From: Euglena gracilis
Taxonomy: Eukaryota
Direction of reading: 5' to 3'
Length of the DNA: 36,434 nt
Assembly: GCA_039621445.1 (NCBI GenBank)
Contig: CP154954.1
Span: 28,762,417 to 28,798,850, forward strand
Below, piece by piece: positions 426 through 36,300 of this stretch. Position 1 is the stretch's first letter, and the number at the start of each line of letters is the position of its first letter. A model generated the notes under the pieces. That model ran no database searches. It saw nothing but the letters and a program-made list of their open reading frames with translations, and was not told the DNA's origin. The translations under genes and the position numbers were made by a program.

Positions 426-1683
426 AAGCCAAGTTGCATTCCCCCCCCCTGCTGAGTGGGTACCCCACTGCAGGAGGGGATTCTTTTGGAGAGTAGAGCC
501 AGAGTTGATTTGCTTTGCATTTAAAAGAATAAAACTCCTTCCTATGGGGGGAGATGGGCACAGCTTACGTCGGGGAAAGATTGGTGCCAATGCACCATTT
601 GAGCAGTTGCATTTGTCGCCCTTTTGCGCAACTGCACACACTGCGCCCAACGGTTTTTGCAAAACCCAAAGCGGATGGTGTTGATGAGGCGGCGATTGGA
701 AGGTTCCTAAACACGCATTCCAGGCGTGCGTGCCCCGCATGCTGTGCGGACACCTGCTCCGGGGCACCCTGAACCATCAAAGCCTTTGCATTTCTTTTTC
801 CGGTCCCAGGGCACCAGACCACCTCTTGATTGCCTTGTACGGGTTTGGTGTTGTATCCCAAGGTGTTGACGGATTTCTTGGGTGACCGGAAACTTGGCCA
901 CCGGCACCCATGCTGAATGGCTTCGCTTTTTGGCTTGTCATGTTTGAAAGTTCATTGCAATGCACTTGGGAAGTTGTCATCAAAAGCTTGTGCCACCTAG
1001 CTTGCATGGGGAGAAATGTTCTTTAACGAAGTGATCTTTCGACCTGGCCCGTGAAAAGGTTCCTCGCCGGGCCTCGCAGCGCCCTGCTCGCAGAATTGCG
1101 GTGCAGCGAATGCAGCACTTTATTTTGGAATCCGGAAACGTTGCGAAGGGTCATCTCGTCTCAACCACTGTGCCGTTTCTGGGTTGCAACCTGTAGACAG
1201 GGGTCCCCAGTCTTTTAATCACTTTAGGATGGCAAGGGTTGCATTTCATCTTTCTGCCATCCAAACAAATGAATATTTTTGCAAATTTACAGCGTTTCTG
1301 TATCTCCAAATGAACATTTTTGGATGGTCATTATTTGGAGTAACAGGGAAAGGGTTTCGTTAAGTAATGAATTCTTGAGCAATGTTTTGGGCCGGCTGAT
1401 TGGGAGCATGGCAATGCCCAATAGGAGCAGTTTGTGCCTGCAAATCCGAAACAGCGAGTGCATGGTATGTGCTGCGAGCAGTGAAACTCGTGAAGTACAA
1501 TTGTGTGCCAGAACAATTGCATTGCTGGAATATTCGGGCAGATGGCCACAAAGATGACACGAAGACGGGACACATGGAACGCAGGTCCGCATGCATATTC
1601 GAAATGAAGGAATCCCTGCAGTGTTGACGAGATGGCCCTCTGCCCGTTTTGCTTGTGTCGCTTTGTCCCTCTGCCGCTGCCGG

Positions 1684-3301
1684 CAGGCATTATTTTTTTT
1701 TAAGGCGAGATTTCTCAAAATATTTTAAGGCGTTTTTTAAGGTTTTTTAAGGTTTTTTAAGGCATTTTGAGGAATTTTAAAAAGTTTTAAGGTTTTTTAA
1801 GGCATTTTTTTACTCAGGTAAAATCTCAGACCCCGAAGATGGCCCGATGGCTTCAGACTCCTGTGGCTTCGGAACGCCCAAGGAAGAAGCCTTGGGTGAA
1901 GCATGGGATCAGGGCGGTCCATGAGGGACAGTTATTGCCATTTTAGGCATTTTAGGAATTTTAGGCCATTCTAGGAATTTTAGGAATTTTAGGCCATTTT
2001 AGCTCTGGGTTCCTGCACATGGGTCCCAAAATGGGCCAAAAAAACATCCGGTGCCGAAGGAAAAATTATTTCGGGTCCAAAACTGCCCTGGAGGGGCAGT
2101 CCTTAAGGGGCAGTTAACTATTTTAGAACTTTTTCCTCAAAAAATGGCCATTAAACTCCCTCAAACCCCCATTTTTCACACCTTCCAAAAAATCAACGTT
2201 TTCTCAAAATTTTGAATTTGAGAGTTTTTTTGAAGCAAACAAAATGCCATTGAAAATCCAACAAATTTGACAGAGGAAAAGTGTCAGTAAAATTTGATTG
2301 TGCCAAAATTTGGTCCACCTTTTTTGACCTTCGTTAGTTTCCCCCCCCTAAAACTACCAAATTTAACCCTGAAATCTTTGAGTTTTTTTGTGTCAAAATC
2401 AACATTTCTCAAAATTTTAATTTTGAGAGATTTTGGAAGCAAAAAAATGCCACTGAACATCCAAAAAAATTCCAAGGGAAAAATGTCAGTAAAATTTGAC
2501 TGTTCCAAAATTTGGTCCCATTTTTTTTGACCTGCATTTTTTGACCCCCCTCCTAAAAACTAGCAATTTTCATCCCTAAAATTTTGGTGATTTTTTTTGG
2601 GAAAATGTAATTTTCCATCAAAAAATCAACCATGCATTTTGGGTTCATTTTTCAATGTATTTTTTAAAAATTTTCCCATACCAAAATCCCCTTTTCCTTA
2701 ATTTTTGGTTGGGAAAAAAAGTGGGAAAAACTCGCGGAATCACTGCTCAATTGGAGAATGCACTGTTTCGCTGCTTGAAATTCTGTGGCAAGTGTGGGAA
2801 ACTGCTGTAGTAAGTTGTCCCAAATCGGGATTTTTTTGTTGTTCATGCAACTTTTGCTGCAATTGCACTTTTGAGCAATTTGGGTTGACTCCTCTAAGAA
2901 TGTCTCAAGTAATTCAAATCAAGACAGATGTGGTTGAAAGTTTTGCTTATTCTGGCCGTGTGTCACAGCTTTTGGTGAACCGAGGCCAACCGAACTATGC
3001 CAGAAACCTTGGCAAACAATCCGGTTTTCATATTGTTTGTTCACAACCGCTTCTGCATTGACTGGCTTTATGCGGGGTTTCAGGCATGCCATTATTTGTT
3101 TGGTGCAAGAAAAAAATTCCCAGGGAAAATTTTTAAGGTTTTTTAAGGTCATCACGGGAAAGAAAAAATTCCCCGGGGTGATTTTTTTAAGGTTTTTTAA
3201 GGTTTTTTAAGGTTTTTTAAGGCATTTTGGCAAAAAAAATTTAAAGGTTTTTTAAGGTTTTTTAAGGTTTTTTAAGGCGCCTTAAAAAATAATAATGCCT
3301 G
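1684..3301. mobile_element. Non-autonomous hAT-like TIR element, 1618 bp
   Basis: ~24-bp TIR CAGGCATTATTTTTTTTTAAGGCG / CGCCTTAAAAAATAATAATGCCTG (1 mismatch). 8-bp TSD GCTGCCGG/GCTGCCGC. Subterminal (TTTTTTAAGG)n arrays at both ends. No transposase ORF recognised. Confidence 0.88.
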
Positions 3302-3331
3302 GCTGCCGCCACGTTGTCCGATGTGTTGCAG

Positions 3332-6300
3332 GGCCTCAGGCGACTGGAAGTGCCCTTCTCCCCTCTTTCTGTCCTCTTGTGCTGGCCTGGTTCTGTCCCT
3401 TGTGCGGGCTCGAAACTGATGGGGCCCTGCACAGTGCGGCCAGGTGGCCGTGGGGGGTGGAATCATGGAAAGTGGTCCCTATCCAACCAACTCAAAAAAA
3501 ATCAAACTTTTTTTTTGATTTTGAACGGTCGATGCCCAGACAATCCTTTGACCGTCCTATTTTAAAAAAAACATCAAATTACCTGAAGAGACAACAAAAA
3601 AAACCCTCAAAAATAGAAAAAACTTGAAAATTTCCGCTTAAGAATAATCCATCCTGCCCAACTAGGGTTAATACACAGGGGGAACCCGAATAAACGGGTC
3701 CCGCCGATGCATCAACCCAAGTTGAGGAGCTCTTTGGGTTCTAACACAGCGGCGTTGAGCACCGAGAATCGCGACCCGAACCTTTTAAATGACCTGTTCC
3801 ATTTCAAGGCACATCATCATGAGGCGCACCATTTCAGTTTGAAGTGAAGTATCACGCCGTCGTGGGACACGATCATTTATTGTTGTTCCATTTCAGGTTC
3901 ATTGCCTTGGGGCATGAGAGGTGCCGAGAGCATTCCAGCGATACCGAAAGCATGTTTTCCCCTGGAGTTGGCCTTTTTCACCGAGGTTTTGCAACTTCAA
4001 TTTTGCTGTTGGGGGAAAAAAATTGCCAGTGATTTTTTGAAGGCTTTGAAGGTTTTAAAAAAAATTCTAAGGCATTTTGTCAAAATTTTATGGTTTTTGA
4101 GGGGGTTCAAAAGGTTTTTCTTAAAGATTTTTAAAAGCCTCGAAAATAATCCCCATTGGGCAGCTCTTTGGATTCACTGGCATCCTTGAGGGGCCGAACT
4201 ATTAAACAAATATGCACACACAATGCAACTGCAATCTTACACGCTTCTAGACCCCTCCTCGTTACATGCCCTCTTGGTCCCCCTAAGGTTGGCCCTTGGC
4301 CCCCTGGCCTTACCTTCAATCATGGACAGGCCAAGCGCCCGGAGGGGGGTACCCAACTTCGTCATTGGTTCTTGGCATTTGGCTCCCGATGAGCATTTTG
4401 CCGTTGTGTCTTCTGAAGGGCCCATCGGACCTTGACTGGTGTGCCAAACCCTGGCCTCCTTTCTGCGATTGCAGGCCCAGCGGCCGAGGCGCATTTGCTT
4501 TCTGCGCTGTACGATATCAACAAAAGGTACCACGAACTCACACACACGATGTTCACAGTCGACACAGTCTGTCCCGGGCGCAGGATCCTGCTTGCTTTCA
4601 GCATCTCCCAACTGTGGTTTACGGATTGAAACAATGCCGAAGCTGAAAGATGAAGATGATTTGACACCTCGATTGGGGTTCGTGAACAAACGTTAACTGA
4701 TGGTTCATCTGTCCAGAATGGTGCCGTCCCAAGTTTTGATAACAGCTTGATGCGGATACCCAAAACAATAACTGTCGCTCCGCCGGAAATGTCTCGTCCA
4801 TGCAACGTTTGGAAACCCATCCAGAGGCATTTGGATCCGGCAGGGGGTGTGGGGTTTGCCATGGGTGCACCGCGGGGACTTGGGTCCGCGTTCCACAGGT
4901 TTGAGGGGCGGGTGGCTGGGAGGGGGTTGCTGCCGCCCACTCCGGCCGCCCCTTCCCCCTTCAGGCACCCACCGGGGCACCCCGCGCCTGGTGGGGCTGC
5001 CGCGACGCCGGGCACAGGGTTTCCCACTGCCCCGGCCCCGGCGGAGGAGGGGTCCTCGCCCCTCCGTCTCCCCGCCCACCGCTCGCCCCCGCATCCCATG
5101 CAGGGTTCGATGTAAGACCCCCATCAGATAATAAGACCCCCGGCAACCCCCGGGTATCATTTTTCGCCTGAAGTCCCGGCCCGAGGGGGGGTACCATTTG
5201 GGGGGTATTTTTTCCCCAAATTTTCGAATTTTTTCGAAGATTCATAAAGGCTCAAAATAACACCCAAAGCCACCCTTTTGGGGGCAATTTGCAGTTTTCA
5301 CAATATCGTCCTTTTTGGAGGCCAGATGGTCACAAAAATATTTTTGTTTGTTATTTATTGCCCTAATTCTGTTTTTCAACCACATTTTTTCGGGCGAAAA
5401 TCACGGTCAGCGGCCCAACCAGGCTTCTTAGTCGGGGGGGGGGGTGCTAGGGGCAGGCACCCCATGGCACCCGATCCGACCCCCCCCCGGGGGGGGTAGG
5501 GTTTTGGGGGGTGCCTGCCCCTAGCAGGCACCCCCCTCCGACCCCGGCACCGAAGGCGCCGGGGGCCGGGAAAAGGCCATTCTCAATGACAATTTTCTGC
5601 CCCCCCGGACCCCTATCCCCCCAGGGGGAGGTGTGCCTGCAAGGGGCAGACACCCTATAGCACCCACCCACCCCCTCCCCCCTCGGTTGGTAAGCACAAG
5701 CATGGGCCCAAAACTCAGGCGTGTATTATTTTTTTTTGGTTCAAGGGCAATTGTCACCCCCCTCTGTGCCCTCTGTGTCACCCTGGGAATTTGTCACCCC
5801 GCTCCGTGCTGCCCAAATTGTCGCGCAACAATTACCCGGGGGGGGGGGTGGGTATGTCAAACCCTGGTCCCATGCCTGGCGTGAGGCACTGCACCCCCTG
5901 GCGCTGGAGGCCCCCTGGTCGCCTTCTGACCCGGCACTGCTCTTCCGCTGGTTCAATGGCTGCTCAGCGGCGGCCATCCCGACTTGTGGGCCCCCCCGAG
6001 ACTCGGCGCGGGGTTTGGCGGGGCGTGCTTGGCCCCCAGGTCTTGCCTGCAACTGCGGAGAAGGGCGGGCAAGCACCCCGCTCCCCCTAGCGCCAAACCC
6101 CGGCCCAGTTTCGGGGCTTCCATCCCCCTTCCCATCTATTCTGTTCCCTTCCCTTCCGTCTCCTTCTCACGTTGTCTCTCTCTGGTCCGTCCCAGACCTT
6201 TGCTTAAGGATTTGCACAGTGGTCACCCCCCTCTCCCCGGGAGGGAGAGCTGGTCCAAAGTCGGCCAGTCCATTTTGCAGCACCCCTGGGGAGGGGGGGG

Positions 6301-7030
6301 GTTGCAAACTATTCCAGGTGGGGGAATTTTTTTCCAGTGACCGCTGCGAAGCGCCGGATGTTTTTTAAATCCCCAAAACGTGCCGGAAACCCTCATTTTG
6401 ACGTTTTAGGGACAAAATCAGCAGAACACACCCGGTCAAATGCAAAGCGCCATGGAAAATACATTTTTTTTTCTGGCAAGGACCCCCCAGACCTCCTCGG
6501 GGGGGGAGGGGGAGGGGTCTCATTACTGAGCTTTCCCCAGTCGGTCAGTCCGTGACAGTCTCCCGCCCGTCGACCGGCCGGGATCCTTCAGCCAATGCCT
6601 GGCCCCTCCCCTCCACCCTACCCGCCCCCTGGGGCGCCGTCCAAGGGCCCCCACCCCCGGGCGGCCGAGGGGGGCCAGCGGGAGGCCGGCATCCCGCCCA
6701 GATTTTCATTTTGTGCGTTGCAGAATTTTTGTGACCGCGTGCGCCGCGGAATTTTTTTTCTGTGCGCCGCCGCAAACTTCGTCGCGGTGTACTAATTGAA
6801 AGCCTGTCCCGCCGCCGCCCTGCTGGCCCCCCCCTGTCCCGCTCACGCGGTGCGCCTTGCCCTACCTCAAACGCTTTGGCATTCCGGTGGCCTATGGCTT
6901 CCATCACAAGTCCGGGCTGGGGCAGCTGCTGCAGGTCGCGTTTGCGGGTGCGTTGCGTCTGGGGCCCGCTGTCACCTCCGGGGAGGTCATGGGAGGCCTC
7001 CGCTTCTGCTCACTGGCCTCCAGAGCGTGA
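3332..7030 (+). CDS. Candidate spliced gene of unknown product. Putative exons 3332-3443, 4475-4526, 4965-5097, 5872-6039, 6935-7026/7030; may extend upstream to ~1622 and downstream to ~8371
   Basis: A chain of CAG acceptors and GT donors with compatible phases (1, 2, 0, 0) gives a stop-free read GLRRLEVPFSPLSVLL...RPG-PAAEAHLLSALYDINKR-HPPGHP...PHP-MPGVRHC...VLGPQ-VAFAGALRLGPAVTSGEVMGGLRFCSLASRA. No domain was recognised, and the junction at 5097/5872 needs a nonconventional intron. Confidence 0.35.
5101..5866. mobile_element. hAT-like MITE (766 bp) containing a nested element
   Basis: TIR CAGGGTTCGATGTA vs CAGGGTTTGACATA (reverse complement of the right end); TSD ATCCCATG/GTCCCATG. Confidence 0.8.
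5420..5704. mobile_element. hAT-like MITE (285 bp) nested in 5101-5866
   Basis: Ends CAGGCTTCTT...CACAAGCATG; TSD GGCCCAAC/GGCCCAAA; internal GGGGCAGRCACCCC repeats. Confidence 0.7.
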
Positions 7031-7970
7031 GCATTGGGGGGTTGGCTCAGTTGTCCATTTTCCTGCACAGTATTGAAGCCCAGATAAAAAGAGAAATTGA
7101 TTTGATTTATCTGGGTGAGCTTTCTGCCCCATATGGTTCAAAGCGCCCACATTCAGGTTAGTAGGTGTCGGGTGCTGTGGAGGAGGGGGTGGGTATGGTG
7201 GTGTTCAGAGTTTGAAGAGATGTGGGGGATTGGGGGATTTGTGTACAGTTTTTTTTGTGCTTTTTTTTGGGTTTTTTTTTACAGTGAGGGGGAACGTCCA
7301 AGGAGTGTTCACCACCCGAGACACAGGAAAGGAAATTTGGGGAAATTTGGTCCCCAACATGCAGAAGGGAGTTGTGGTTTAGGGGAAGGATCCGGGGCTT
7401 CCCTACCCCAATGAGGCCGAAGATCAATTCAGCATTTGGACCAGGCTTATACTATGTTTGACACATTTTCCAAAAGCTTGAGTGCCAAACGCCAGAGGGG
7501 GCATTCAAGCTTTCGGAAAATGTGTCACAACCTCCTGCTTGCATGCAAACTTTTACCCTGAAGTTGTCTGCCATTCCTGCACCCCCCCCCCCAATGGAAC
7601 AGGAGTGCACAACAAGAGTACCGCCCCCATCCCTCGAAGCAGATGTGTGGGCAGCAACCTGCCCTCCTGGGGAGGGGCCTTGGGACATGATCTAAAGTGC
7701 GGCCGGCAGACCAAATCCATACATTGCAAACGTTGGCCAAAAAGCCTGACCTGTCTTTGGCCCCTGCTCTCGGGCAGGACACGCCCTGAAGGGGGCAGGG
7801 GCGTTGAATGCTCCATCCCCCGGTGGAACCACCCCAATCCCTGCAGCGCCCCACTGCGGCTGCCAAGGCTGCCAGGGTTTCGCCTCCCCGGGCAATGGTG
7901 TGCACCGCTCCGCTGCAGCGCTCTGGGCTTCCTGGGGCCTCTCGACGGGGCGGGCCCGTCCTGTACATAC

Positions 7971-8063
7971 CAGGCTTCTCTTTAAGTCAGAAGACCCCCC
8001 CCGGGGGAGGGGAGGTGGGGGGTCCGGGCCGGACCCCCCCCGGGGGTCTTAAAAAGAAGCCTG
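7971..8063. mobile_element. Very short hAT-like MITE (93 bp)
   Basis: TIR CAGGCTTCTCTTTAAG / CTTAAAAAGAAGCCTG; perfect 8-bp TSD GTACATAC. Confidence 0.92.
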
Positions 8064-9881
8064 GTACATACCACCCATGGCCCCCCTCCCTTCCTGCCAC
8101 CGCAGTTGCTCTTCTGTGCTCCCTCATCCCATTCACCGCCGGACCGCATTTTTCTGGCCACCCCGTTCACCGCGGACCGCATCTCTGGCCACACGTATGG
8201 TTTTTTGACTCCGCCCTGTCGCGTCCCAGAGACGCCTTTGCGGCCACACAGGAAGTTGTGCGCTTCGCAATACGTTTGAAAACCGGGAGCAGTTTTCTAA
8301 GAAAGGTGGCAACACAAAATCACAATGGAGACACGTCAGGGATTTCGGAGCATGCCCCAGAAGGCTCCTGAAATTCCTGAACAGAAGAAGTTGGGGTTGC
8401 ACATATTTGGGTGTATCCACTGGGGCGAGTCAATTTCAAAGAGCTGCCCACCCCCCAACGGAGCGAGCGTCCACATCAAGAGCCTTGCTGTTTGGTTTCA
8501 CAGGTTTCGCCGGGCCTCTGCAGAGGCTCCACCGCCGTTTGCTAATTGTTGTCGATGGTCCGAAAATTTGGAGCCTTTCTTCATGTTCATTGTGTGTGTT
8601 CATTGTTCGGTTCATGTTCATGCATTCCGGCTGTTTAAAGGAGGATATTTAGGGGATCCGAAAGAGTTGCTTAATTAGAATTCAAAACATGGCGTGGCAC
8701 ACCCAAGGTAAAAAGAAAGCAACCCCCCCCCCCGGAGTCCAGGAGTCCAATTTTGCAGGGAAATCACAACATGTGCAAAGAGAAGGCAGAGACCCCACAA
8801 CGAATGAAGAGACCCATTGCAAAATTCTATGAAGGGAGAAACACTTCGGCACAAACAAGGGCAACAGAGGTCGGATTTCCCCATTTCCGCCGAGCCAAAA
8901 ATTGTTCCCACCTTCTGGAAAGGTACCTCTCCTATCCTCCATTATTTTCACTTTTCTCATTTCCTTTGGTTCCATTGTTTTTGGTCGGATGATTTTTCTC
9001 CTCCATTGAAACGTACTCTGTTTTTCTATCCATCGAAGTGAAACGCGGTGAGTGATCTTTGGGGGGGCAACGGTTCAAATTTTGAGACCAGGACAAATTT
9101 TAAGAAGCCCCCCCCCCCCAATGGCCGTGCTGGCCCTCTACTGCCATTTCTTTTGTGAAACTGGTGCCCATTCTGTTGCTTGGTTCTCTGGGAGGGGAGC
9201 TCCCAGCGCAGTTTACAGATGTGAACTATTTCAGAATAGCAAGTTTTCTTCAACGTCGAATGGAAGCACATGAATGGAAAGCACATTTCTTATGATCATT
9301 AAGTGGCGGCGTACAACAACAACCTTGCCCCCCCCCCAGGCCCGAGCAGTTGAATTGGGGTCGTATGGTGGGACCCGGGTTCCATTTTCCAGATTTTTCG
9401 GCCTGGTTTGCGAAAAAAAAAATCCTTTTTGAACACACAGAACACCGAAGCCAAGAAAGAAAAGCGATTTCCCCCGTTCGATTTTGGAGGGAACAAAACA
9501 GTGGGTGTTTTCTCAGGGAAACGCTCAAAGGTGCCATTGTGCAGCTTTTCCTGTGACTTTCCGCCCTTTGTGGCAGACACTGTTGGGCTGGCTGGGGGGC
9601 ACCACCGCCAGGCTGGTCACTGACGCCCGGGGAAACGGTGCTGTAAGAGGGGGGGGGGCAGAGTCCAGCCCCAAACCCCACCCTTTCACCAGTTGCTAAA
9701 TGAAATGATGTGCACGGTTTCCCATCAACTTGAGTTTGCCCCGGGTCAGGGAACAGAGTCCACTCGGGGGACAGAAACCATGTCACTGCTGGCGGGAGCA
9801 CCCCAACCCACCTTGGGCTGGGTGACAGGGCCCCTCCCTTCCCCCGACTCCTTCGGGCGACTCCACGGGCGGGTCCGCCCA

Positions 9882-10019: not shown

Positions 10020-13000
10020 GTCTGCCCCCCCCCCCCACCGCCCGCCCCAGCCCGCCTATGCGCCTGTGCGGTGTGGTGGCGGAATCTGCACGCATGGCAT
10101 CCTGTCCTGTTGCATTTGTCCCTTTGTCTGGGGGGGGGTTCTTCATTCGGCCCTTCGGTATCCTTAGCTGGTATCTCCTGCAGAGATGGGGTTCAGCCAG
10201 CACCCTTTTGGCAGCCAGCTCAAACTTTCCTTTCTTCCACTCGGCCTGCCCTCCCCACTACGATGATTTCAGATGCCCTGGCCATGAATGAATCTCCCCA
10301 GGCGTTGTTCCTGGTTTTTTTTGCCCACAAACACTTTCAATTTCGATTCTGAGCACACATTTCGAATATAGAAGCGCAACAATTTGTATCTTCTGGCATC
10401 CGGTTCGATTCATGGGGGTGCCGGAGGGTCAGCCAGCAGCTTGTTTTCAGAGCCAAAATTTCCCGCCTTTGAGCTGGGTGTTTGAAGCGCGAGGAGCGGT
10501 ACAGCAGGAACCATCCAGGTGGGTGGGGTTGGGGGCTATTGAGGGCAAGCCCAGGGACTGACACGTAATCTGAATGAACAGGCAGTGCATTATGTAGGCA
10601 TGTCCCTTGCGCTTCGGTGCAATGTATTTCCTCACCAAGCCCACACTCTGGCCGTGCAGAGAGGGGCCCCCGACACACCGTAACACATCAGAGGGATTCC
10701 CATAAGCTCAGGGGGCTTCCGATAACCATTGAGCTTAAGTGCAATCATTTGACATTGCGCTTAAGTGCAAGATAAAACTATTGCGCTTAAGCACAACTTC
10801 CTTTCAAATAGAAGTTGTATTTCAATGTGTTCGTGCTGTGTGAGAACGTGGGGGATTGAGGAGAATGATGGGAATACAGATGTATCAGCATGCCTTCCCT
10901 TCTCCGCCGTTGTTAATGGACCCTTTCGATTTCTCAATTCCATTCGCTCATCCCCAAAGTTGTGTGCTTCAAATACTGGGTGAGAAAAGGGGGGTGACGA
11001 GCTTCTTTAAAACACGTTTTCGATGCCTAAAATGGCTTCCTCGGCTGTGATTCCAAGGGTTCAACTGGTACCTGTTCTTCCCCAAAAAGAAAATTTCCGA
11101 CTTTCAAAAGTTGGCCAAAAGAAGGGCCGCTCAGGCATGCTTAACTGCGAAGCAAGTGGGAGGAACCTCTGGCACTGGCAGTTGGGCTCACAACGCCTAG
11201 GACAAGAGACGTCTGGATATGAAGAAGTTGGTGGTTGTTTTCACACACCAGGGGTTGCTTCCTGTCCCAGGCAAGGTTTCCCTTCACCTTTGCTCTGTCC
11301 GCTCTGGTAATGAGATGCTTCCAGGACTCTCCACCCACAGTGATAGAAAGAGGAATTAAAAATTGGCAACTGTTGCGCCGAAGCGCAATGGGCAGGCTTA
11401 TTAACAGCTTGAAAATTATCTTACAACGGAGGGAGAGAACGGCTTTGGTAGAGGATGAACACCAGAGGGGATAGAACACAAAAATGTAGAGCAGGGGGAC
11501 GAAAGCCTACCCTCGGTCACGGTTGTCTTAAATGTGGTCAACATTGCGCTTCGGCGCAACACCCACGCTGCTTTTACAGTTTTAAAATTGTATTTCTATT
11601 GCGCTTTGACGCAACGTAATTCTTAAAATTCCATTCTACATAAGCGATATGATAATTATCTTATAATGATAATTAATAAGGTTAATTTTCAAGCAGTTAC
11701 ATTGCGCTTTGGCGCAACACCCCGCTAACATAAAATTGTAAAAATTGTGTTTCTCTTGCGCTTGGGCGCAATGTAACTCTTAAATTTCCATTCTTCATAA
11801 GCCTATAAGCCTGCCCATTGCGCTGTGACGCAATGGAAACAAATGTTGACACATACGTTACATCATTGCGCAAGTACGGCAATGGTCACCCACATGTTGA
11901 ATTACAAAAAAGGTAAAAAGTTTACGCTCAAGCACAATGTGTTTTATTTTTTGTGATGAAAAAAAATCGTTGCGCCAAGGTGCAACTGCGCAATAGAGTC
12001 CCCTCGTTTCATCACCCGGCGCTTTGTATTCATGCACACTGGGCCCGGGAGCGCTGTGCCTTCAGACCATAGAGTTCCAAGTCGTTGGTTTCGTCCCCAG
12101 GCCCTTGGAGTGCAGGGAGACAGTAATGCGGGCTGTCTCGAGTCTCAGGCCCCGGTGTTCGAAAACAGAAAAATTCTTTGGCATTGCGCGTTGGCGCAAA
12201 TTTACAGACATTTTCAAAGCTTAGTGCAAGTTAGGCCGCCTAAGTGGAGCCGTGGGCAGGTGGTTTCCAACCTGAAAAGAAGTGGGTGGTGCGGGTTTGG
12301 GGGTTTTTTTCCCCCCCCCCCCCCCCCCCCCCCCCCGGAGGACACTGAGTGAACCCGTGTGGCACTGCCCCCCTGCACAGGAACGTGTCTGGGGCTGGCC
12401 CAGCGTTGCCCGCCCCTCCGCAGATCCGATCGCCCCCAGAGGGGCAGCCCCGGCCCGCCGACCTCTTCGTCCAGGACGGCATCCCAGTCCCCGCCGTGGA
12501 CCCGGACGGCGTGCTCATCCGCGTGCACGCCACCGCCGTCAACCGCGCCGACACAGTCAGAGGCCCCCTCAGGTCGCAGTTCATTTGGAATTTGGAATGG
12601 AGGGATGGGGGGCCCGGGCGGCTCATATTCACCGCACCGACGATGAGCGACCGTGAGCGATGATGAGCGACCAGGGCTGACCATGACCTCAAAGGTGGGA
12701 GATGCCCGGGATATTTTAAACCCAGAACACCCCCAGAGGGTTCTCGGCCAACCCCCCCCCCCCCGCCCCTGGGGGATTGGGTTGAGCCAAAAAAAATTCC
12801 GGCTCAACCCATGGAGCCGGAAATTTTTGAAAATGGTCCAAAAATGGTCGGAGAATGAAGCATTGAGGGGTCTGTTCTCTGGCCACCTGAAAAATATTGG
12901 CCAAAATTTGTAAATCAAAATGATGAAAACTGGAGTTTTGAATTTTTTTTTGTCAGATGGGCCTGTTTTGTGACCCCCTCCCTGGGGGGAGGGGGTCACA

Positions 13001-16000
13001 AAAGAAGCCTGGTTCGCTTGGTGTATTCAACAACAACAGCAACAGCAGCAGCAGCAGCAGCAGTTGGTATAAATGGGGGGTCGTTCTAAATGGGGGTACC
13101 ACAAGCACAAGCGACAGCTCCAAAAACAAGGGGCTACGCAAGTGCACAAAATAGACCACTTGTCATGGCCAAACAGACGGCTCAATTGCTTCTTTAGGGT
13201 AACACAATTCTTTAAATAGGTGCCATTGCTGGAGAAAGTTTGACCTCTGGGATTTGGCAAAAAACTGGCAGTTGGGCATTGACGAGCCTCAGCTTTTCAG
13301 AGTGAATTTGAAGCTGCCCCAGGGGAGGACAGAAAAATCCTGTTTCTGTCGAACAGGATTATGCAAGAAAAACCTCACAAGGTAATGCTTAGCTCTATTC
13401 AAAACCTGCTTAACCCCATCAGCTGCCAATTCTTATGCCCCGCCTCCATTATCCCATGATACAACATCACCAGCACCACCACAATTTATTGAAGCAAAAT
13501 ACGACGCAACAATGATCCACTGTAAAACCGAAAACGTGGCTCGGACGCAGGGGCGGAGTATGGGAAAATTTTTTCGGTACATTTTGGTGCTCATTTTCGG
13601 CTCAAAAACAGTTTTTCTGGGTCCTGGAGGCCAAAGAACATCGTTTCAAAATTTTTCCCGGCTTTTTCGACTTTTTCACCCGTTTTTGACCCAAAACCCA
13701 TGGGTTTCGGGCCAAAAACAGGGGGGCCACGGGGTCGAAAAACACTCATTTTGGGCTCAAAAACAGTTTTTCTGGGAGGCCAAAAACATCGTTTCGGGCA
13801 ATTTTTTTCCCGCCTTTTTTCGACTTTTTTTGGCCCAAAATGGCCGAAAATGGCCAAGTCAAAACAGCCAAAGCTGTACAAAATGGCCAAAATTGGCCAA
13901 AAAAAATGGCCGTAACTCGGGAGGGCGGGGACCCCGAAAACAGCCCAAAATGGCTCCAGAAACGGGCTAAAATTGGCCGAAAAATGGCCATAAATCAGGC
14001 TCGCGAAGAGTTGGGGGAAAGCAAACCATGGTTGGACAGGGCATTCCAAGGACTTCATTTTTGCTCTCCGGACTTTTCCTTTCATTTTGTTTCATAGTCG
14101 AGATCTTTTGGAAAAAACAGTTTTTTTTGGCCAAAAAAAACGGCCCAAAAAAACACCCCAAAACGGCCGTTTTGGACCACAGCACCGCGCCAGAACACGG
14201 GCCAGGCGTGTCAGCGGCCAAAATGGCCAACGGGGGGGCGATAGAGGACCTCCAGGGGTACATTTTGTCAGCGGGTCAATTCTGGAGATAATGTACGTTT
14301 TATCGAGATATTTTCGAAAAATCGATTTTTTGCCCCATTTTTTGACCCCGACGAAATGGCAGAGTCGGAAGGGGGGGGGCAGTACACAGTTTGGACCCCT
14401 TCACGGGTGAATAACTCGGGCCTGGCGGGGAGTTGGGGATCAAACGGAGGTGATTCGGAAACTAGAAATCCAGTCGCTTGAGACTGAAAAAAAAAATTTC
14501 TGGAACGGAGCCGGGATCATGGTGATAATCCACCGGTTCTCGAGATGGCCCCGACCCGGAACCGGGGGGGGGGGGGCGGGGGGGCGCCCCCCCCCCTTTT
14601 CCCCAGGGGTAAGCTTCGCTCTTACCCATAAAGGAATGACAGCTGAGCGACCCCGTCGTAAACCCCCCTGTGGTCCTCCCCAAGGGGTATTTGAATGTAA
14701 AGTGTATTTTTGTTGAAGCAGAACATCATTTACACAACGTTTCATTTGGCTAACATTTGCTGTCTTTCATAATTTGACTCACATGCTGCAAATGGGTAAC
14801 CCCCCCCCCCCAATAGAAGCACGGGGCCGCTACAAGCGTAGGGCCCAAATAAAAGCGCACCCCCCGCCGCCGAAGGCATGAGTGCACCCCCCATTATGAT
14901 ATGATTTCTAAAGGAAATCAACAAAAATCGCGTGGGTAGGGTCCAAATAGAAGCGCACCCCCCCGCCGCCGGAGGCGGCGGCTGCTATAAGCGCCCGCGC
15001 TTCTATTAGGGGGGGGGGGTTATGCCCGGGACTCTGAAACACATCGCAAACTCTCAAAGATTTTGGGGATGCAAGAATTACGACACCATAGCAGACGACG
15101 GTGCATGAAACATTCCAGAAGGAATCTGCAAATGTGCCTCCCAAAACGAAATGGCAAGAGCATTTTTTGTTCGCTTCCACGGTATCCTTCCTTTTGCCAC
15201 CTGGCTCGCCGATGTGATGTCCTTCTGGGGATCCGTCTGTGTCGGTTTGGTGTTTGACCCAGAGGAGGGGTTTCTTTTTTTTTTTTACACGGGAGAGGGG
15301 ATGGATTCACTCTGCCAACCCGGGGACGCTGAGGGCGATGCAGCGCCGGGGCTTGTACCCGCCGCCTCCCGGGGCGTCCGACATCCTCGGTGTGCCTGCT
15401 GTCCATCGCCCCACCCATCAAAACGCAGTCGAGTGGTCTACATATGCATGCGTGTGCACGTGTGTGTAAAGTATGCACATATATGTATACTTATACAAAT
15501 GCATGTTTTTGTGCACACCTTTTCTTTTAAGTTTCTCTCCGGACTGTCTCGCTTGCAATGGGCCGCTTAGTAAAAAAAAAAAACCGTCCTGTTGTTGCGG
15601 CTCCGTTAAATTTCGAATGTTTTCCATCTGCAGTCATCTTCACGACGCATTTTTGACCACGTGGCCATTGGCGGTCCTGCCCCCCCCCCCTCCACAGGGC
15701 TGGAGGCTGCCGGCATCGTGGAGAAAACCGGGGCCAACGTCACCCAGTTCCGCCCGGGGGACCGGGTCATGGCGCTGCTGAGCGGCGGGGGGTACGCCCA
15801 GTACTGCGTGGCGGACGTGGGGTGCTGCATCCCCATCCCGGACGGTGTCTCCTGGACCGATGCGGCTGCCATCCCAGAAGTGTGAGCATTTATTTATGTG
15901 TGGGGGTGAACGTGTGCCTATGTGTGTGTGTGTGTGTGTGTGCTTGTGTGTGTGTGTGCTGTGTGTTGTGTGTTGTGTGTGTGCGTGACGTGCGCGCGTG

Positions 16001-22000: not shown

Positions 22001-25000
22001 TTGGTTTTCGTTTGATGATTTTGCTTACTGCTATTTGGGAGTTGCCATCCCAATTCTGCCCATAGCAAGCACTCCCCCCTCCTGGGGAGGCCCCCCCAGG
22101 GGGGTGGGTGGGTGGGGGGGACCCCCCCGGTCTTAAAAAAAAAACCCCTGATGGGGGTCCCATCCATCCATCCACACCGGTGTCTTTGGCGGTGCCCCAG
22201 CACTGGTCTGCCCTCCCCCCCCAACGCCGGCAGCCGGCCCGACAGCCGCACCGGTCCCCACGCCCCGGCCAGGCCAGCCCATTCCCCCGACCGCCAGCCC
22301 CCCCCTACGCGCCTTCAGCCAAACATGCCCCCGCGGAAATGTCGGTCGGTTGGGGCCCAAAGGCAAAAAAAAATTCTACCCCCCCCCCTGTGTGCACTGT
22401 GGCTGTTTGTTTGGTGCCTTTTATCCCTTCTTCTGGCCTGGCGCTGTTTTTCGCCTCTTGCCACTCCCCCCCCCCCCGGGAAATTGACACCTCCCAGTTT
22501 GGCAAATACCGGGGACCCGGAGAATTTTCTGGAACCCACCGGGTTCTCGTGGTTGGTGGCATACCTTTTTCCTTGGCCAACTGCCTCGGGGGAGGTCCCC
22601 AACCGTTTCCCGCCCCGCCGCTGGAGGGTGCCTTGCACCGGATCTTCGCCGCGGACGTGCAGGACGTGGTGGGGGCCCACGGGGTGGACGTCATCCTGGA
22701 CCCGGTGTTCGGGAACTACATGCAGGAGAACGCGGAGGTGCTGGCGGTGGACGGGACCATCGTCATCATCGCCATGATGGGCGGTGTGCCCTCCCAGCCC
22801 ACCGCAGATTCGTCCAAAAAAGGCCGCCTGAAAGGTATTGGCAGGACTTTTGCCTGCCAAATTAGTCCACACAGCTTTTATACCCCCCTTCTGCAAGAGC
22901 CGCAACAGCAGGGTCGCTCTTGCAGGGCAGCAACATTCAGCTCTGTATCAGAACATGTTCAGGTCTGCAGAACCCCAGTTTCTTTTAAACTCCCGTTCTG
23001 TCCTCGGCCAACTTTTAACACCATTTTCTTTCTTCGCTTGGATGACATCACGATAGTCATTTTCATCCTACTGCATAACATTTGGCTGATTATTTTCCTC
23101 TGGTGCTTTCCCTGTCGTCCAGATTGAATGTGTGTGTGCAGCTAATGGCAATTGTGAAAATGGGGCGGCCCTGTTTAGCCAAAGTAGCTCTGTCATTGTG
23201 GGCTTGAGATTGGGAACAGAGAACCCTGCATTCCAAACCGTGGGCGGAGAATCATTGGGATTTGTTGAACGTGCCCCCCCCCCCCCCCCGGGGTTCATGC
23301 GGGGTTTGGGGTGGGCGGTCCCCGCGGACCGCTGTGCCTCCCCTCGGCAGGGTCCACCATTGACCCGCCGGCCAGCATGCCCACCCTCTTCCGCAAGCGG
23401 GCCACACTGAAGTTCTCAACGCTGCGGAACACCAGTGTGTCCCCCGGCGGATGGACCCTCTCCCGCAGCATCGTGCCGTGCCAGGGTGTCAGTATATTCA
23501 CAAAGCTGGGACAAAGATAAGAACTTCGGAACTTTTTTTTCTGATAGTCAGCATATCGCCAATGTCCGCCAGCCACCTCAGACCCCCCTCCCAAACAGGG
23601 TGGTCCGTAAGGGACGGGAATTTTTTTTTTTAGTTAAGGACCGCCCCCCACCACCTCTTCCCGTATTTCCGGGAGCACCAATTTTTGGACCCGAAAATTT
23701 TTTTCCATCGCCTTCGGCGCCAGGTGTTTTTTGCCCCATTTCGGGACTCATATGGGAGGTCCCCCCCAAAAACCCCTCAAAAACCCCATTTTTTCACACC
23801 TTCCAAAATTCAACATTTTCTCAAAATTTTGACTTTGAGAGGTTTTTGAAGCAAAAAAAAATGTCATTGAAAATCCAAAAAATTTCACAAAGAAAAAAAA
23901 TCTCAGTAAAATTTGGCTGAGCCATAATTTGGTCCACTTTTTTTGACCTTCGTTTTTTTTTTTCACCCCCCTCCTAAAAACTACGAATTTTTAACCCTGG
24001 AATTTTTGAGATTTTTTTGGGAAAAAATGCGGTTTTCCATCAAAAAATCATGTATTTGGGTTCATTTTTCAAAATAATTTTTAAAAATTTCCCCAGCCAA
24101 AGTCCCCGTTTTCCCAAATTGGTGAAAATCTGTGGTGGGTCCTTATTTTTCGGTTGAAGTGCATTGGGACATATATGTTTTTTTTTTTTAGTTAGGGACC
24201 GTCCTGCTCCCAAATAGTTCACACAGGACAGGCTTCCACACCATGCATGCTCATGTGGGTGGGTCCCGTCAGGGGGATTGCACCTCGGGTCAAGTTCAAA
24301 GGCTGGCCAAAAATTTCATTGAAGGGTGTGCCACTGTTTTTTGTGCCACCCCCAGGGATCTGAACAAATTATTTTTGCACGTATCAGTTTCATGACCAAT
24401 CTTCAATCGGCTCACCCGGGGTTCTGCAAGGATGTAAAAGTCATATTGTCCAGAAAAAAAGCTTTTTTTTCGGGCGTGATAAACTGCGGGAATTTGCAAA
24501 TTCCCAGAAATCGCTCCTCCATCACCCAGAGTCACAGGGATTGGAAAGGTGGGAACACCAAGGACTTCCACCTGAATGAGCTCCCGGCTTGGAAAGGAGG
24601 GAGGACCATTGGGCCATCCGGTGCCATCGCGGGAAGAAGGAAGATTGGCATCCGGGTGGGTGGATTGCGGTGATCAGCGTCGCTGAGAACGAATGTTGGC
24701 AACGTGCTCCCTTGTAAGATAATGATACCTGACACCTTCCCTATTGGAAGGTGGTCTCCCGAAAAGAATTGGCCTCGGGTGCTCGCCAATTTGGGCCTAC
24801 CCGAAGAACAAAGCTCTTTCGGGGTACAACTCCCTGCAAGGCCAGGTCGGCGACAGGCACCTACGGCCGACCAGGACCGACCACGGCCGACCAGGGCCGA
24901 CCAGGGCCGACCAGGGCCGACTATGGTTTTCAGGACCCCCATAGGTGGGGGTTCCGACCAGGGCCGACCAGGGCCGACCAGGGCCGACTAGGGCCGACCA

Positions 25001-25809
25001 GGGCCGACTTGCATGTGGTTGGCCGACCGAAGGGGAATGGATGAAAGAATTCGGCAGCTTTGCCTCTGGAACAAGCACCTCTGATGATGTTGGGCGATGC
25101 AGGGCGATGCTGGGTGATTCTGGATTTTTGGAGACCAGCGGTTGGGTTCTGATGCGGCGATGCAGGGCGATGCTGGGTGATGCTGGCAGTTTTTTTGTAT
25201 ATTTTGAAGAACTAAACCCATCTTTGGATAATTTTCTCACAAATCTCCAGTTTTACACCCATTTTGGCTATTATGGATCAGTTTTTGCTAATTTGGGGGC
25301 TATTTATCACTGATTGGGCAAATATTGGGCTAATTTGGGTCAATCTGAGCATTTTTTATGGCATTTTGGCCATTTTGCGCCCTCTTGGTAATTTTTGGGT
25401 CATTTTTCACAATCTTTTGTGGATTTTGTTGGCATTTTTGGGTAATTTTTGGTTATTTCAAGCCATTTTAGGTCATTTTGGTTGCTTTTGGGGAGCCAAT
25501 GGAGGCCTTATGGGGCACTTCCTTTTGATCTTGGCGAGACAATTCAGAAAATCATTGCATCCCCTTCACATTTTTTCTGTGACGGATACCCCCACCTATG
25601 GCCGACTATTTGCCGACCAGGGCCGACCAGGGCCGACCAGGGCCGACCAGGGCCGACCAGGGCCGACCAGAGCACCAAAATGGGAAGTGACCATAGGTGC
25701 CTGGTCGGCGAGCACAGGCCCAGAGGCCAATTTCTCAGGCAAGACAGGAGTTCGCCTGACCCTCCTATCAAATTAATTTCCAATCAAAAAAAAACCCTGC
25801 ATATATAAT

Positions 25810-33347: not shown

Positions 33348-36300
33348 TGCGCACCTGCGCATTCTTTTGTGACCAAGTGTGTCGCCATCACTTGACGGGG
33401 CGGCCGACCTGTCAACTGAAACCCCTGGTACCAAAGTGGGTACCACTGCTTTCGACCCCTGGGTTTTTTCCTGGGCAAACCGACTTTTTTCGTTTTGAAA
33501 ATGACGGTTTTGCACCTCCGCCGACCGAGGGAAAACCCCCATCTGCCGAAGTAGGTGCGACACAAAACACTGTTTTACGAGGACGAAACCTCGTCAGGTG
33601 GAGGCGTTGTACCTGTCGCTGTCCCCCCTGCTTTGTGGTGCCGAGTGAATGCGCAGGTGCGCATTCACCCTCCTCCCCGTCCTGGCCTGTTCCTGAAGCT
33701 TTGGACGGTTATTGTGGCTCCCGGGGGTGGTTGTGGGAAGGGGGTACCGTGGTCTCTACGGTTTGGGTGGAGAGGAGGTTCTGTGCTCTGTGCTGGAAGC
33801 AGGGCACGAGGGGGCGCTAGCGAATGTTTGGGGTGTGCGTGTAGTCTGTATTCAGAGAGTGGTGGGGTGTGTGTGTTAAAATCCACACCAGATGTCTGTA
33901 GGGGAGGGCTCGTCACCCTCCTCAGGCTGCCTGCTGTTTGCAATCCCACACGGTGCACTGCACCCCTCCTTGACACTTGCAGGCACAGCATCCCTCCAGT
34001 AACGCATGCAGTCTGCTCCTCATGTGCCTTCTCATAGGCACCACGGCACATCACCATGTGCGACCACCTGTGTTAGGTCTGACGTTTGGGATGTGGTGCT
34101 GGGTATGGAAGGGGGGGGGGCTGGCTTGCACTCCTCTCCTGTGTGACACTGGTTTTAAAAGCTACGGAGCGGAGCCCCACTTCAACCCTTTTTGCCACAG
34201 ACAACACCCTCCCGAACAGCCCTCACAAACGATGTAAAATGGCTCCTCTCCGAGCTTGCATGAGGCTCAAGAATGCGCACGTGCGCACTCTTGAGGCCAT
34301 TCCTTCGCTGGCTGGTTGTGATTATATCTGCAGGAGAGCAGGAGGGGAGCAGTGCTGGGCAACCACAAGAGTGCGCCTGCGCATTCCGTGAGGGGGAGTG
34401 CGCAGGTGCGCATTCTCTGTGCTGTGGGGAGCTGTGTCTCGCACTCCTGAACCCAGTGCCAGCACAGCATTGTGGCAGGGCCACTCCCATGGTGCACTGC
34501 TGGCCTTTTTGTTGACGATTTCAGAGGCATCTCATTGCACAGGTGGATGCCGCCAGAGCAGGGCGGACGTCTCCCTGGCTGTGCCTCCACCTTGTGTGCT
34601 GAGTTGTTGGGCATGGCCTTGTACAGCAACCTCCTCCTACCAGGTGCTTTAAGGGGAGACACAAGAAGGGAATGTGCATGTGCGCATTCACCCTGATGTG
34701 CCATGTTTGACTGCAGCCATCGCGGATGGGGTGTGTGGAGAAGGTGTGTGCATATGTGCTTTCCCTGGTCTTCACAGCGGCCAAGGGTTGTGCAGTTTGC
34801 AGTGTTGGTGCGTCGACTCTGAGTACATGATAAAAAAGGGTTCTATGTGGTGGGTGGTTTTTGTTGCCAGCAAGGCCACAGGTGGTGGTCATCCTCTGCC
34901 TTGTTTCGCTCCAGGGCTGCCTCGTCCTAGGACACCATACGATCCTCGCAGGAAGGTCTACTCTTCAGCCGTGTGGTTTCAAACCCAGGCCAGGCGGGGG
35001 AGTTGGCGTGGGTGGTGGCATACCCACCTGGGAGTGAAAATATTCGACGGTGTGGCTGTCATTCAAAGAAAGGCACAGGACGATTTTTTGCGCATGTGCG
35101 CATTCACCGACTTTTCATTCATGCCATGAAGGACTGCTGACCGCATTTGGGAATCAGGGTGCCCGTCACCGAGGAATTTCCTCGGGCACTGAAGTCCCTT
35201 TCTCATCCGTATGCCCTTGGTACGACACAGTGTAATACACAGAAAAAGCAGAACGAAAAATTTCCTTGGGTTTATCGGCAAGTTTTTGTTGTGATGTGCT
35301 TGTGCCTGTCACACGATCTCAAGGGCCTGGAGAAAATTTGGGGCAAGGACTAACCAGTGGTGTTCGCTTCTTTGAGTCCATTTGGATTGTGAATTAATTC
35401 TGTGTTTCACAGACCGTTTTTGGGAATGATGTCGAAGGTGGTGACAGGCGTGTTTCGCTCTCGGGGTGCCAACCCCGTGAGCTGTGTGTGGTACCAGACA
35501 CAATCCCCTGCGTTGACCCTAATTGTGGGGCACAGTGCTCCTGGCACCATGCACTGCAGCCCAACATAAGGTTGTTCAGGGAGCCAAATAGCTGTGTGAT
35601 GCCATGCACGCTCTGGGGCGTGGGGTCGGACAACGCTGGCAGCAGCCTCCCTATCACCTCCCCCAGGTGGGGGACGGTTGCATGTGCGTTGTGACTTGCT
35701 CCACATGTTCATTAGAGCAGTGTCACTCGGCTGGGCACTGGACTGCAGCGGGTGAAGTGGAATGCGCAGGTGCGCATTCTGATTTGTTCGGTGACTTGCA
35801 CTGCAGCGGGTTAGTTCCCCTGTCACTGAAGGACATTAATTCGTGCCTTGACACCTGCCGTCGCCGAGCCCAGGGTTTTCTATGCTGCTGCAGGTGTCGT
35901 GTATCAGGGTGTTGTCTAGTACCGCGACATGGTTGCCCAGGGTGATTTTGTTGGTGCATCTCCCCCTCACACACCCATGTTCTGCAAGCCCGAAACAGGC
36001 TTCTTTTTAAGTCACCTGACCCCCCCCCCCCCGGGGGGGGGGGGTGGGGGGGGTGGGCCCGGGCCGGACCCCCCCCCCGGGGGGGGGGTCCCGCGCCGGA
36101 GGCGCTGGGTATACCTTTTCGGCGCGAAGCGCCGAAAATTTTTGAAAATTGCCTTTAACGGGCCCGATTTTGGGAGGGTCCCCGGACCCCCCCCCCCACC
36201 CGTGTGGGGGGATCCCGCGCCACCCTTGGTGGTTGGGGGGGGCCCCCCCCCCCCCCCCCGGGGGTCTTAAAAAGAAGCCTGGCCAAAAACCACATCACAG

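Follow-up and report, generated by a model that had tools for sequence, protein, structure and literature searches.

The question raised by positions 5098-5871 of this stretch of Euglena gracilis DNA (the window, which is the whole 36,434 nucleotides (nt) analysed) was whether a transposon-like element lying at 5101-5866 in the DNA is removed from RNA as a nonconventional intron of the euglenid kind. The initial annotation had proposed, from the letters, that a transposable element of the miniature inverted-repeat type (MITE) acted here as a young intron of that kind. Stretch 5098-5871 is a nonconventional intron built like a transposon and cut from RNA as the euglenid code predicts. The fuller reading, by which element 5101-5866 is an RNA-removed nonconventional intron and of transposon origin, was given a probability of about 0.75.

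The code was defined by knock-ins and is given in the text of Nomura et al. 2025 (PMC12501133) as 5'-N3CDG...CH'GN5-6/R, with a complementary middle base (here and below, a slash between letters or positions marks a border). Synthetic sequences of 50 base pairs (bp) with just these features were spliced in a knock-in, according to the same text. Pyrimidine/purine rules for the borders are described by Milanowski et al. 2016 (PMC4770533).

Four runs were aligned to positions 3001-9000 at a likeness of at least 88%: X21 and X24, both raw RNA-Seq reads and from different studies, with about 5-6% of each run sampled; X15, a small run guessed to be RNA and represented by contigs; and the DNA run X1. 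An RNA joint from 5093 to 5868 skipped exactly 774 bases, with 8 ambiguous letters that fit either side. The joint was present in X21 (2 reads, 2 start places), in X24 (3 reads from 3 start places, the shorter side having 70 letters) and in X15 (1 contig at depth 197.6, its shorter side having 76 letters), and in 0 contigs of the DNA run X1. The ambiguous letters, which are the duplication described below plus one chance base, allowed nine equivalent placements of the joint, from 5093/5868 to 5101/5876. Among the nine, 5097/5872 alone gave N3-CAG, CTG-N5 and a purine at the exon start, and it gave pyrimidine/purine at both borders (C/A at 5097/5098 and at 5871/5872); GT/GC-AG borders occurred in 0 of the 9. 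Cutting at exactly 5097/5872 is the placement predicted from the code.

5098-5871, + strand: nonconventional intron of 774 nt, placed by the N3-CAG...CTG-N5/R code.

The letters on the + strand, C/ATG-CAGGGTT at 5097/5098 and AACCCTG-GTCCC/A at 5871/5872, were as the initial annotation had given them when it held that both borders fit the code, and the junction of 5097 to 5872 on which it had staked its proposal is one of the placements of the joint found in RNA.

Depth of RNA in the unique interior of the element (5201-5400) was 0 + 0.05 in X21 and 0 + 0.03 in X24, with about 6 in the flanking bins of X21, so that the element is missing from nearly all RNA molecules. A strong hairpin flanked by direct repeats is a classic setting for reverse-transcriptase template-switch artefacts, and 5101-5866 offers such a setting. 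A switch between the 8-nt repeats, brought together by the stem, would produce the joint from RNA that still contained the element; it was rejected on the near-zero RNA depth inside the element with the flanks covered, by which the element was not in the template RNA. The three libraries, from three studies, agreed on the joint, and in knock-in genetics such sequences were truly spliced in Euglena, as reported in PMC12501133. An artefact of this origin is scarcely credible. No back-joined reads were present among the 15 of 102 joints listed.

The removed stretch was organised as follows.

5101-5866, no strand assigned: body of the transposon-like element, 766 bp in all and 481 bp once the nested element is subtracted.
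5093-5100, + strand: ATCCCATG, the left copy of an 8-bp target-site duplication, whose final 3 bases (5098-5100) serve as the N3 spacer under the code.
5867-5874, + strand: GTCCCATG, the right copy of this duplication, in which the code makes the first 5 bases (5867-5871) the N5 spacer and the A at 5872 the purine opening the exon.
5101-5114, + strand: left terminal inverted repeat, with the 5' code motif CAG at 5101-5103.
5853-5866, + strand: right terminal inverted repeat, with the 3' code motif CTG at 5864-5866.

The copies ATCCCATG and GTCCCATG were identical at 7 of 8 positions and directly abutted the ends of the element. The terminal inverted repeat comprised 7 perfect bp and matched at 9/12 and 11/14 at the DNA level; both this repeat and the duplication had been reported in the initial annotation, as about 14 bp and 7/8. 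In RNA of the + strand the ends paired at 13 of 14 positions when two G.U wobbles were counted (2 of the 3 mismatches become G.U). The duplex of the ends had an energy of -29.8 kcal/mol; shuffled ends gave -16.5 +/- 3.6, and 1 shuffle in 300 was equally good. In addition, the minimum-energy fold of 5088-5881 paired both intron ends (z = -4.1; 20 shuffles). Even the longest open frames that overlap the element reached no more than 224 amino acids and were of low complexity, and a Pfam scan of the open frame 5590-6087 gave no match. Element 5101-5866 shares with MITEs the inverted repeats, the abutting duplication of fixed length and a size too short to encode a transposase.

The earlier label of MITE held as to architecture (inverted ends, duplication and small size), but no second copy of the ends of 5101-5866 was found within the 36-kb window. 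The description of the element as young was not supported and can be taken only in a relative sense: the duplication can still be recognised, but it and the inverted repeat are decayed, a second element is nested inside, and both haplotypes (that of the window and that of X1) carry the insertion.

The nested element that the initial annotation had placed at 5420-5704 was confirmed, with an 8-bp duplication of its own.

5420-5704, no strand assigned: nested element, 285 bp, from the high-copy CAGGCTTCT family, with left end CAGGCTTCTTAG and a decayed right end.
5412-5419, no strand assigned: left 8-bp duplication of the nested element, GGCCCAAC.
5705-5712, no strand assigned: right 8-bp duplication of the nested element, GGCCCAAA, matching GGCCCAAC at 7/8.

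The right end of the nested element reads ATG, not CTG, so that on its own it does not satisfy the intron code. Summed X1 word depth was 1.07 million in the bin containing it (5401-5600) versus about 60-100 in the flanking single-copy bins. Ends related to those of the nested element were found elsewhere in the window 7 times versus 2.03 expected (0 of 100 shuffles reached 7), and were located at 7971/8063, 13011 and 35996/36281. The nested element is clearly one member of a high-copy family. To the same family belongs a 286-bp element at 35996-36281, with perfect 12/12 CAGGCTTCTTTT ends and a flanking repeat of 6/8, and a solitary right end of the family lies at 13000-13011.

The window was scanned for CAG...CTG ends 40-3000 bp apart, with an inverted repeat of at least 9/12 and an abutting 8-bp repeat of at least 7/8. 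The scan returned 5 elements (1684-3301, 5101-5866, 7971-8063, 23596-24206 and 24854-25703), and the same scan of 30 Markov-1 simulations averaged 0.1 and never exceeded 1. When end pairs of at least 10/12 were taken regardless of their flanks (81 pairs), the 8-bp flanks matched at 8/8 in 2, at 7/8 in 1, at 6/8 in 1 and at 0-5 positions in the other 77. Elements with CAGG ends and an 8-bp duplication are a real recurrent class in this DNA. Two of the further elements were skipped by RNA.

1684-3301, no strand assigned: second element in the same transcript, 1618 bp, with inverted ends CAGGCATTATT that match at 11/12 and the 8-bp repeat copies GCTGCCGG and GCTGCCGC (7/8).
7971-8063, no strand assigned: third element, of the CAGGCTTCT family, 93 bp, with an 8/8 repeat GTACATAC.

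RNA reads starting at 3302 carried a loose end of 30 letters equal to 1646-1675 (21 X21 reads, agreement 0.99; 1 X15 contig). RNA joins 1675 to 3302, and the stretch skipped is element 1684-3301 plus 8 bp. A joint from 7962 to 8064 drops 7971-8063 and the perfect 8-bp repeat (10 X21 reads, 1 X15 contig and 0 X1 contigs).

Close to each of its ends, element 1684-3301 contained arrays of a 10-bp unit like TTTTTTAAGG (at 1722-1808 and at 3183-3277); it also had an internal duplication. The remaining two elements, 23596-24206 and 24854-25703, were CAGG-ended with perfect 8/8 flanking repeats (CTCCCAAA and GTCGGCGA, respectively), and the interior of 23596-24206 was about 81% similar to the inside of 1684-3301.

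Between 8064 and 8358, RNA reads and a cDNA-like contig of 1278 nt differed from the window at many sites, with small insertions near 8267-8274. By the joint from 7962 to 8064, the reads came mostly from a second, diverged haplotype (for example, 11 of 14 X21 reads at 8098) that was also found in X1 DNA, whose depths for the two forms of 8064-8358 were close (45 and 41). These differences point to a pair of diverged haplotypes or paralogues that are unequally expressed.

A number of points weighed against reading 5101-5866 as an RNA-removed intron of transposon origin. Support for the junction consisted of 5 raw reads only, from samples of about 5%. With the N3/N5 placement, the other two elements skipped by RNA put a pyrimidine at the exon start (T in the case of 7971-8063), so that the purine rule is not absolute here. 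The exons yielded no protein match: a Pfam scan of seven exon or element open frames gave 0 families, and searches for homologues of the exon peptides 5874-6185 (at near lengths) and 4435-4596 (at longer lengths) gave no match at E <= 0.01. Positions 5112 and 5307 were each covered by one X1 DNA contig at single-copy depth (57.7 and 49.2, respectively, at a likeness of at least 88%). Membership of the outer element in a family is unproven, MITE being a putative label taken from its architecture. RNA and DNA were not shown to derive from the same clone, and an uninserted allele would likewise look like a precise loss of the element and one repeat copy. X1 showed one of the two RNA alleles at positions 5025 and 5026; X1 contigs can drop variants, and the empty-site form being missing from X1 is therefore weak evidence.

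The last of these points concern an explanation in which the joined form is DNA, the RNA being the product of an uninserted allele, paralogue or strain and the insertion-bearing copies being silent. An empty site would show just this loss of the element with exactly one repeat copy, the locus has two diverged haplotypes (for example, at 8098-8314), and X1 contigs do not display every allele. Against this, the joint was in no X1 contig, and X1 DNA contig 4 (387 nt, 4802-5188) crossed the left border unbroken from the exon into the element, carrying T at 5025 and G at 5026. The joined X15 contig carried the same T and G; in X21, 7 of 12 reads had T and G, and the remainder had C and A as in the window. 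Both alleles are thus tied to the element in DNA, the window providing one case and X1 the other, yet the element is missing from the RNA, which speaks for splicing. X15 also joined 3412 to 4434, 6186 to 6605, 7962 to 8064 and 8358 to 8490; the first and the last of these lack a flanking repeat and cannot be empty transposon sites, so that X15 is cDNA-like and not a different genome. The empty-site explanation moreover needs three independent elements of one transcript all to be missing from the expressed copy. It is very improbable, and the element is present in the DNA and missing from mature RNA.

As to origin, splicing of a genuine nonconventional intron leaves room for another explanation, in which the 8-nt repeat and the inverted ends came about in another way, for example by break repair or by selection for pairing, and not from insertion of a transposon. 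Within the window, the outer element's ends occur once, and 5112 and 5307 are single-copy, as said above. An 8-nt repeat also occurs at the recently gained gapC intron, for which repair of a double-strand break is offered as a source in the text of Milanowski et al. 2016 (PMC4770533), and the stem's two transition mismatches can both form G.U pairs on the transcribed strand, an outcome expected of selection for pairing. These features are set against the 5 occurrences of CAGG ends with an 8-bp repeat versus 0.1 expected, and against the sharing of this architecture by the CAGGCTTCT family, with several copies in the window and a summed X1 word depth of about a million-fold. One copy of that family is nested in this very intron, where no splicing selection acts on that copy. 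Pieces of the outer element were repeated as well, and the loose-end consensus beside 5160 resembled the local sequence. An origin without a transposon is unlikely.

The repeated pieces of 5101-5866 in X1 were 5160-5191 (49 contigs with loose ends) and the surroundings of 5385 (depth 3138). Stretch 5160-5191 (32 bp) was extremely repeated in DNA as well as RNA runs and had loose ends to its left and right (49 X1 contigs; 16 X24 reads per side), and the similarity of the consensus adjoining 5160 to the local sequence was at lower identity. This stretch may be the core that is best conserved across the family of the outer element, or else another nested fragment; a metagenome scan with this piece gave 0 matches. 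The pattern of repeated and single-copy parts would be compatible with a diverged member of a larger family. No transposase was tied to these CAGG-ended elements, their autonomous partner not having been searched for.

Under the reading of 5098-5871 as an intron of transposon origin, a non-autonomous DNA-transposon-like element with CAGG...CCTG inverted ends would have inserted in a region transcribed from the + strand, duplicating an 8-bp target; the structure would thus have arisen by transposition. The host would remove 5101-5866 from RNA as a nonconventional intron of the euglenid type. The termini CAG and CTG would serve as both code motifs, pairing with each other, extending into a stem of about 14 bp and bringing the borders together. 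Cuts 3 nt before CAG and 5 nt after CTG would take out the element and exactly one copy of the duplication. The spacers of 3 and 5 sum to 8, the length of the duplication, so that the mRNA would regain the sequence that preceded the insertion. Because the ends are symmetric, an insertion would offer the same code geometry on either strand. The second element, of a related high-copy family, would have inserted later inside the first, and would leave with it. Removal would presumably follow the non-spliceosomal route described for Euglena. Removal of nonconventional introns is independent of the U2 spliceosome and releases a full-length circle, as cited in PMC11282704 and PMC12501133.

Intron 5098-5871 resembled the euglenid nonconventional introns of Milanowski et al. 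2014, Milanowski et al. 2016 and Nomura et al. 2025 in the absence of GT-AG, in CAG at +4 to +6, in CTG at -8 to -6 and in its pyrimidine/purine borders. It resembled them also in its stem-paired ends, in flanking direct repeats that make the joint slidable, and in its removal from RNA. It did not differ from them in kind, and its transposon signature was unusually complete, comprising the 8-bp repeat at full length (7/8), a stem of about 14 bp and, nested inside, an element from a related family. As an intron it is genuine, well preserved and of a known kind, and as a single locus it adds an example and not a new principle.

In Euglena agilis, 71.8% of introns are nonconventional and 84.4% of all introns are slidable through short direct repeats, according to the text of PMC12501133, which calls intron origin unclear and names MITE-like elements as a possible source. 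An origin from MITEs had been proposed in Milanowski et al. 2014 (PMC3935182). Milanowski et al. 2016 (PMC4770533) describe a newly gained gapC intron with eight-nucleotide direct repeats; like 5098-5871, this intron 4 of gapC in Euglena agilis ACOI 323 is nonconventional and has eight-nucleotide repeats at its junctions, and it is regarded as recently gained. Unlike 5098-5871, for which the evidence consisted of architecture and RNA and DNA reads, it was dated by its absence from other strains, and break repair is discussed in that text. In a 2024 review (PMC11282704), CAG and CTG are already labelled an inverted repeat and the junction repeats are called duplication-like.

Introner elements of Micromonas, dinoflagellates and others, as treated in PMC11282704, are likewise small transposons with terminal inverted repeats and target-site duplications that are removed as introns, the duplicated target supplying part of the cut sites. 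Introners are spliceosomal, with GT-AG drawn from element and duplication in the account of that review, whereas 5098-5871 had GT/GC-AG at none of its nine placements and the euglenid code applies.

The 8-bp duplication and terminal inverted repeats of 5101-5866 are like those of hAT or Merlin transposons. Besides Merlin, P, hAT and other transposons also make 8-bp duplications. Merlin elements with 8-bp duplications are recorded in E. gracilis and have 5'-GG ends, according to the text of PMC8101967, unlike the ends here, which are CAGG, with CA and TG inside the inverted symmetry. In the texts covered, figures and supplements apart, no literature was found tying euglenid introns to a named family that makes 8-bp duplications, or showing a member of a repeat family as such an intron; the slide-distance chart of PMC12501133 (Fig. 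1B, with its supplement) may show a peak at 8 nt.

The locus supports the published hypothesis that nonconventional introns come from small DNA transposons, in which a MITE origin was already proposed. That idea had so far rested on inverted ends and short repeats. The window adds three RNA-verified cases that share their ends and 8-bp duplications with elements also found in non-exonic places, one of them, from a very high-copy family, nested in intron 5098-5871 itself. The hypothesis becomes testable genome-wide, by asking whether slide length peaks at 8 and whether intron interiors occur in CAGG-ended repeat families. The transposon reading also explains the spacers of 3 and 5.

A broader proposal is put forward tentatively, as one that may well not hold. 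The nonconventional splicing code would mirror, in RNA, the insertion geometry of one transposon group, CAG and CTG being its termini and 3 + 5 its 8-bp duplication. The pathway would erase insertions to the base in either orientation, and its machinery would measure from the terminal hairpin much as a transposase would. Most introns of the CAG and CTG type would be decayed CAGG-ended, 8-bp-duplicating elements of a sort still multiplying here.

The flanks of the intron were transcribed from the + strand; untranscribed flanks were one of the outcomes that the initial annotation had named as fatal to its proposal. X24 is stranded: throughout the unique exonic bins, its first mates were on the - strand only, conventionally a sign of + strand RNA. 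A neighbouring intron gave the same direction.

3413-4433, + strand: non-slidable nonconventional intron AAA-CUG...CGG-ACCUU/G, joined in 16 X21 reads, 5 X24 reads and 1 X15 contig.
4893-5097, + strand: upstream exon, its 3' end taken from the joint and its 5' end, estimated from depth, at or before about 4893.
5872-6186, + strand: downstream exon, continuous through 6039, with 6186 slidable to 6188, and then joined to 6605.

Intron 3413-4433 fits the asymmetric N3/N5/purine rule on the + strand only, with one G.U pair, which fixes the direction of the transcript as +. Alternative non-GT-AG joints with nearly the same 3' side, a minor one from 3340 to 4433 (4 X21 and 1 X24 reads) and the major one from 3412 to 4434 (16 and 5 reads, respectively), suggest alternative 5' cutting of a nonconventional intron.

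The exon boundaries first proposed around 5098-5871 did not stand. The upstream exon had been started at 4965, after a strong acceptor, and the letters CCCCTTCCCCCTTCAG are there; X21 depth speaks against that start. An exon starting at 4965 would fill at most 36 positions of bin 4801-5000 versus 97 of bin 5001-5200, for a predicted depth ratio of at most 0.37, and the depths were 6.6 and 5.9, respectively, with no reads in 4601-4800. The downstream exon had been ended at CAG/GT (6039/6040), and these letters are present, yet the X15 contigs run on: records 12 and 13 extend to 6186 and 6181, respectively, and record 12 next joins 6605. The claim that the joint is in phase and free of stops says little, 2 of 3 frames being open across it in a region of about 60% G+C. 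A search combining the code or GT-AG with pairing of the ends, for the intron between the exon 4434 to about 4600 and the exon ending at 5097, gave 547 candidates and no clear winner. The continuous exon 6605-6859 had stops in all three frames.

Through the RNA-supported joints of 1632-1675, 3302-3412 and 4434 to about 4600, an ATG at 1632 opens a frame. This frame started with two motifs of the Cys-x-x-Cys type and a hydrophobic stretch, followed by the most protein-like peptide of the region (from 4435 onward), and no homologue of it was found.

Rfam and tRNA scans of the window gave 0 matches each. The only recognisable protein signal in the window was a weak match to ADH_zinc_N at 22645-22815 on the + strand (E = 1.6e-4; 22.1 bits, below the cut-off of 31.8 bits), in the open frame 22066-23124, which is probably one exon of a gene of the dehydrogenase or quinone-oxidoreductase type.

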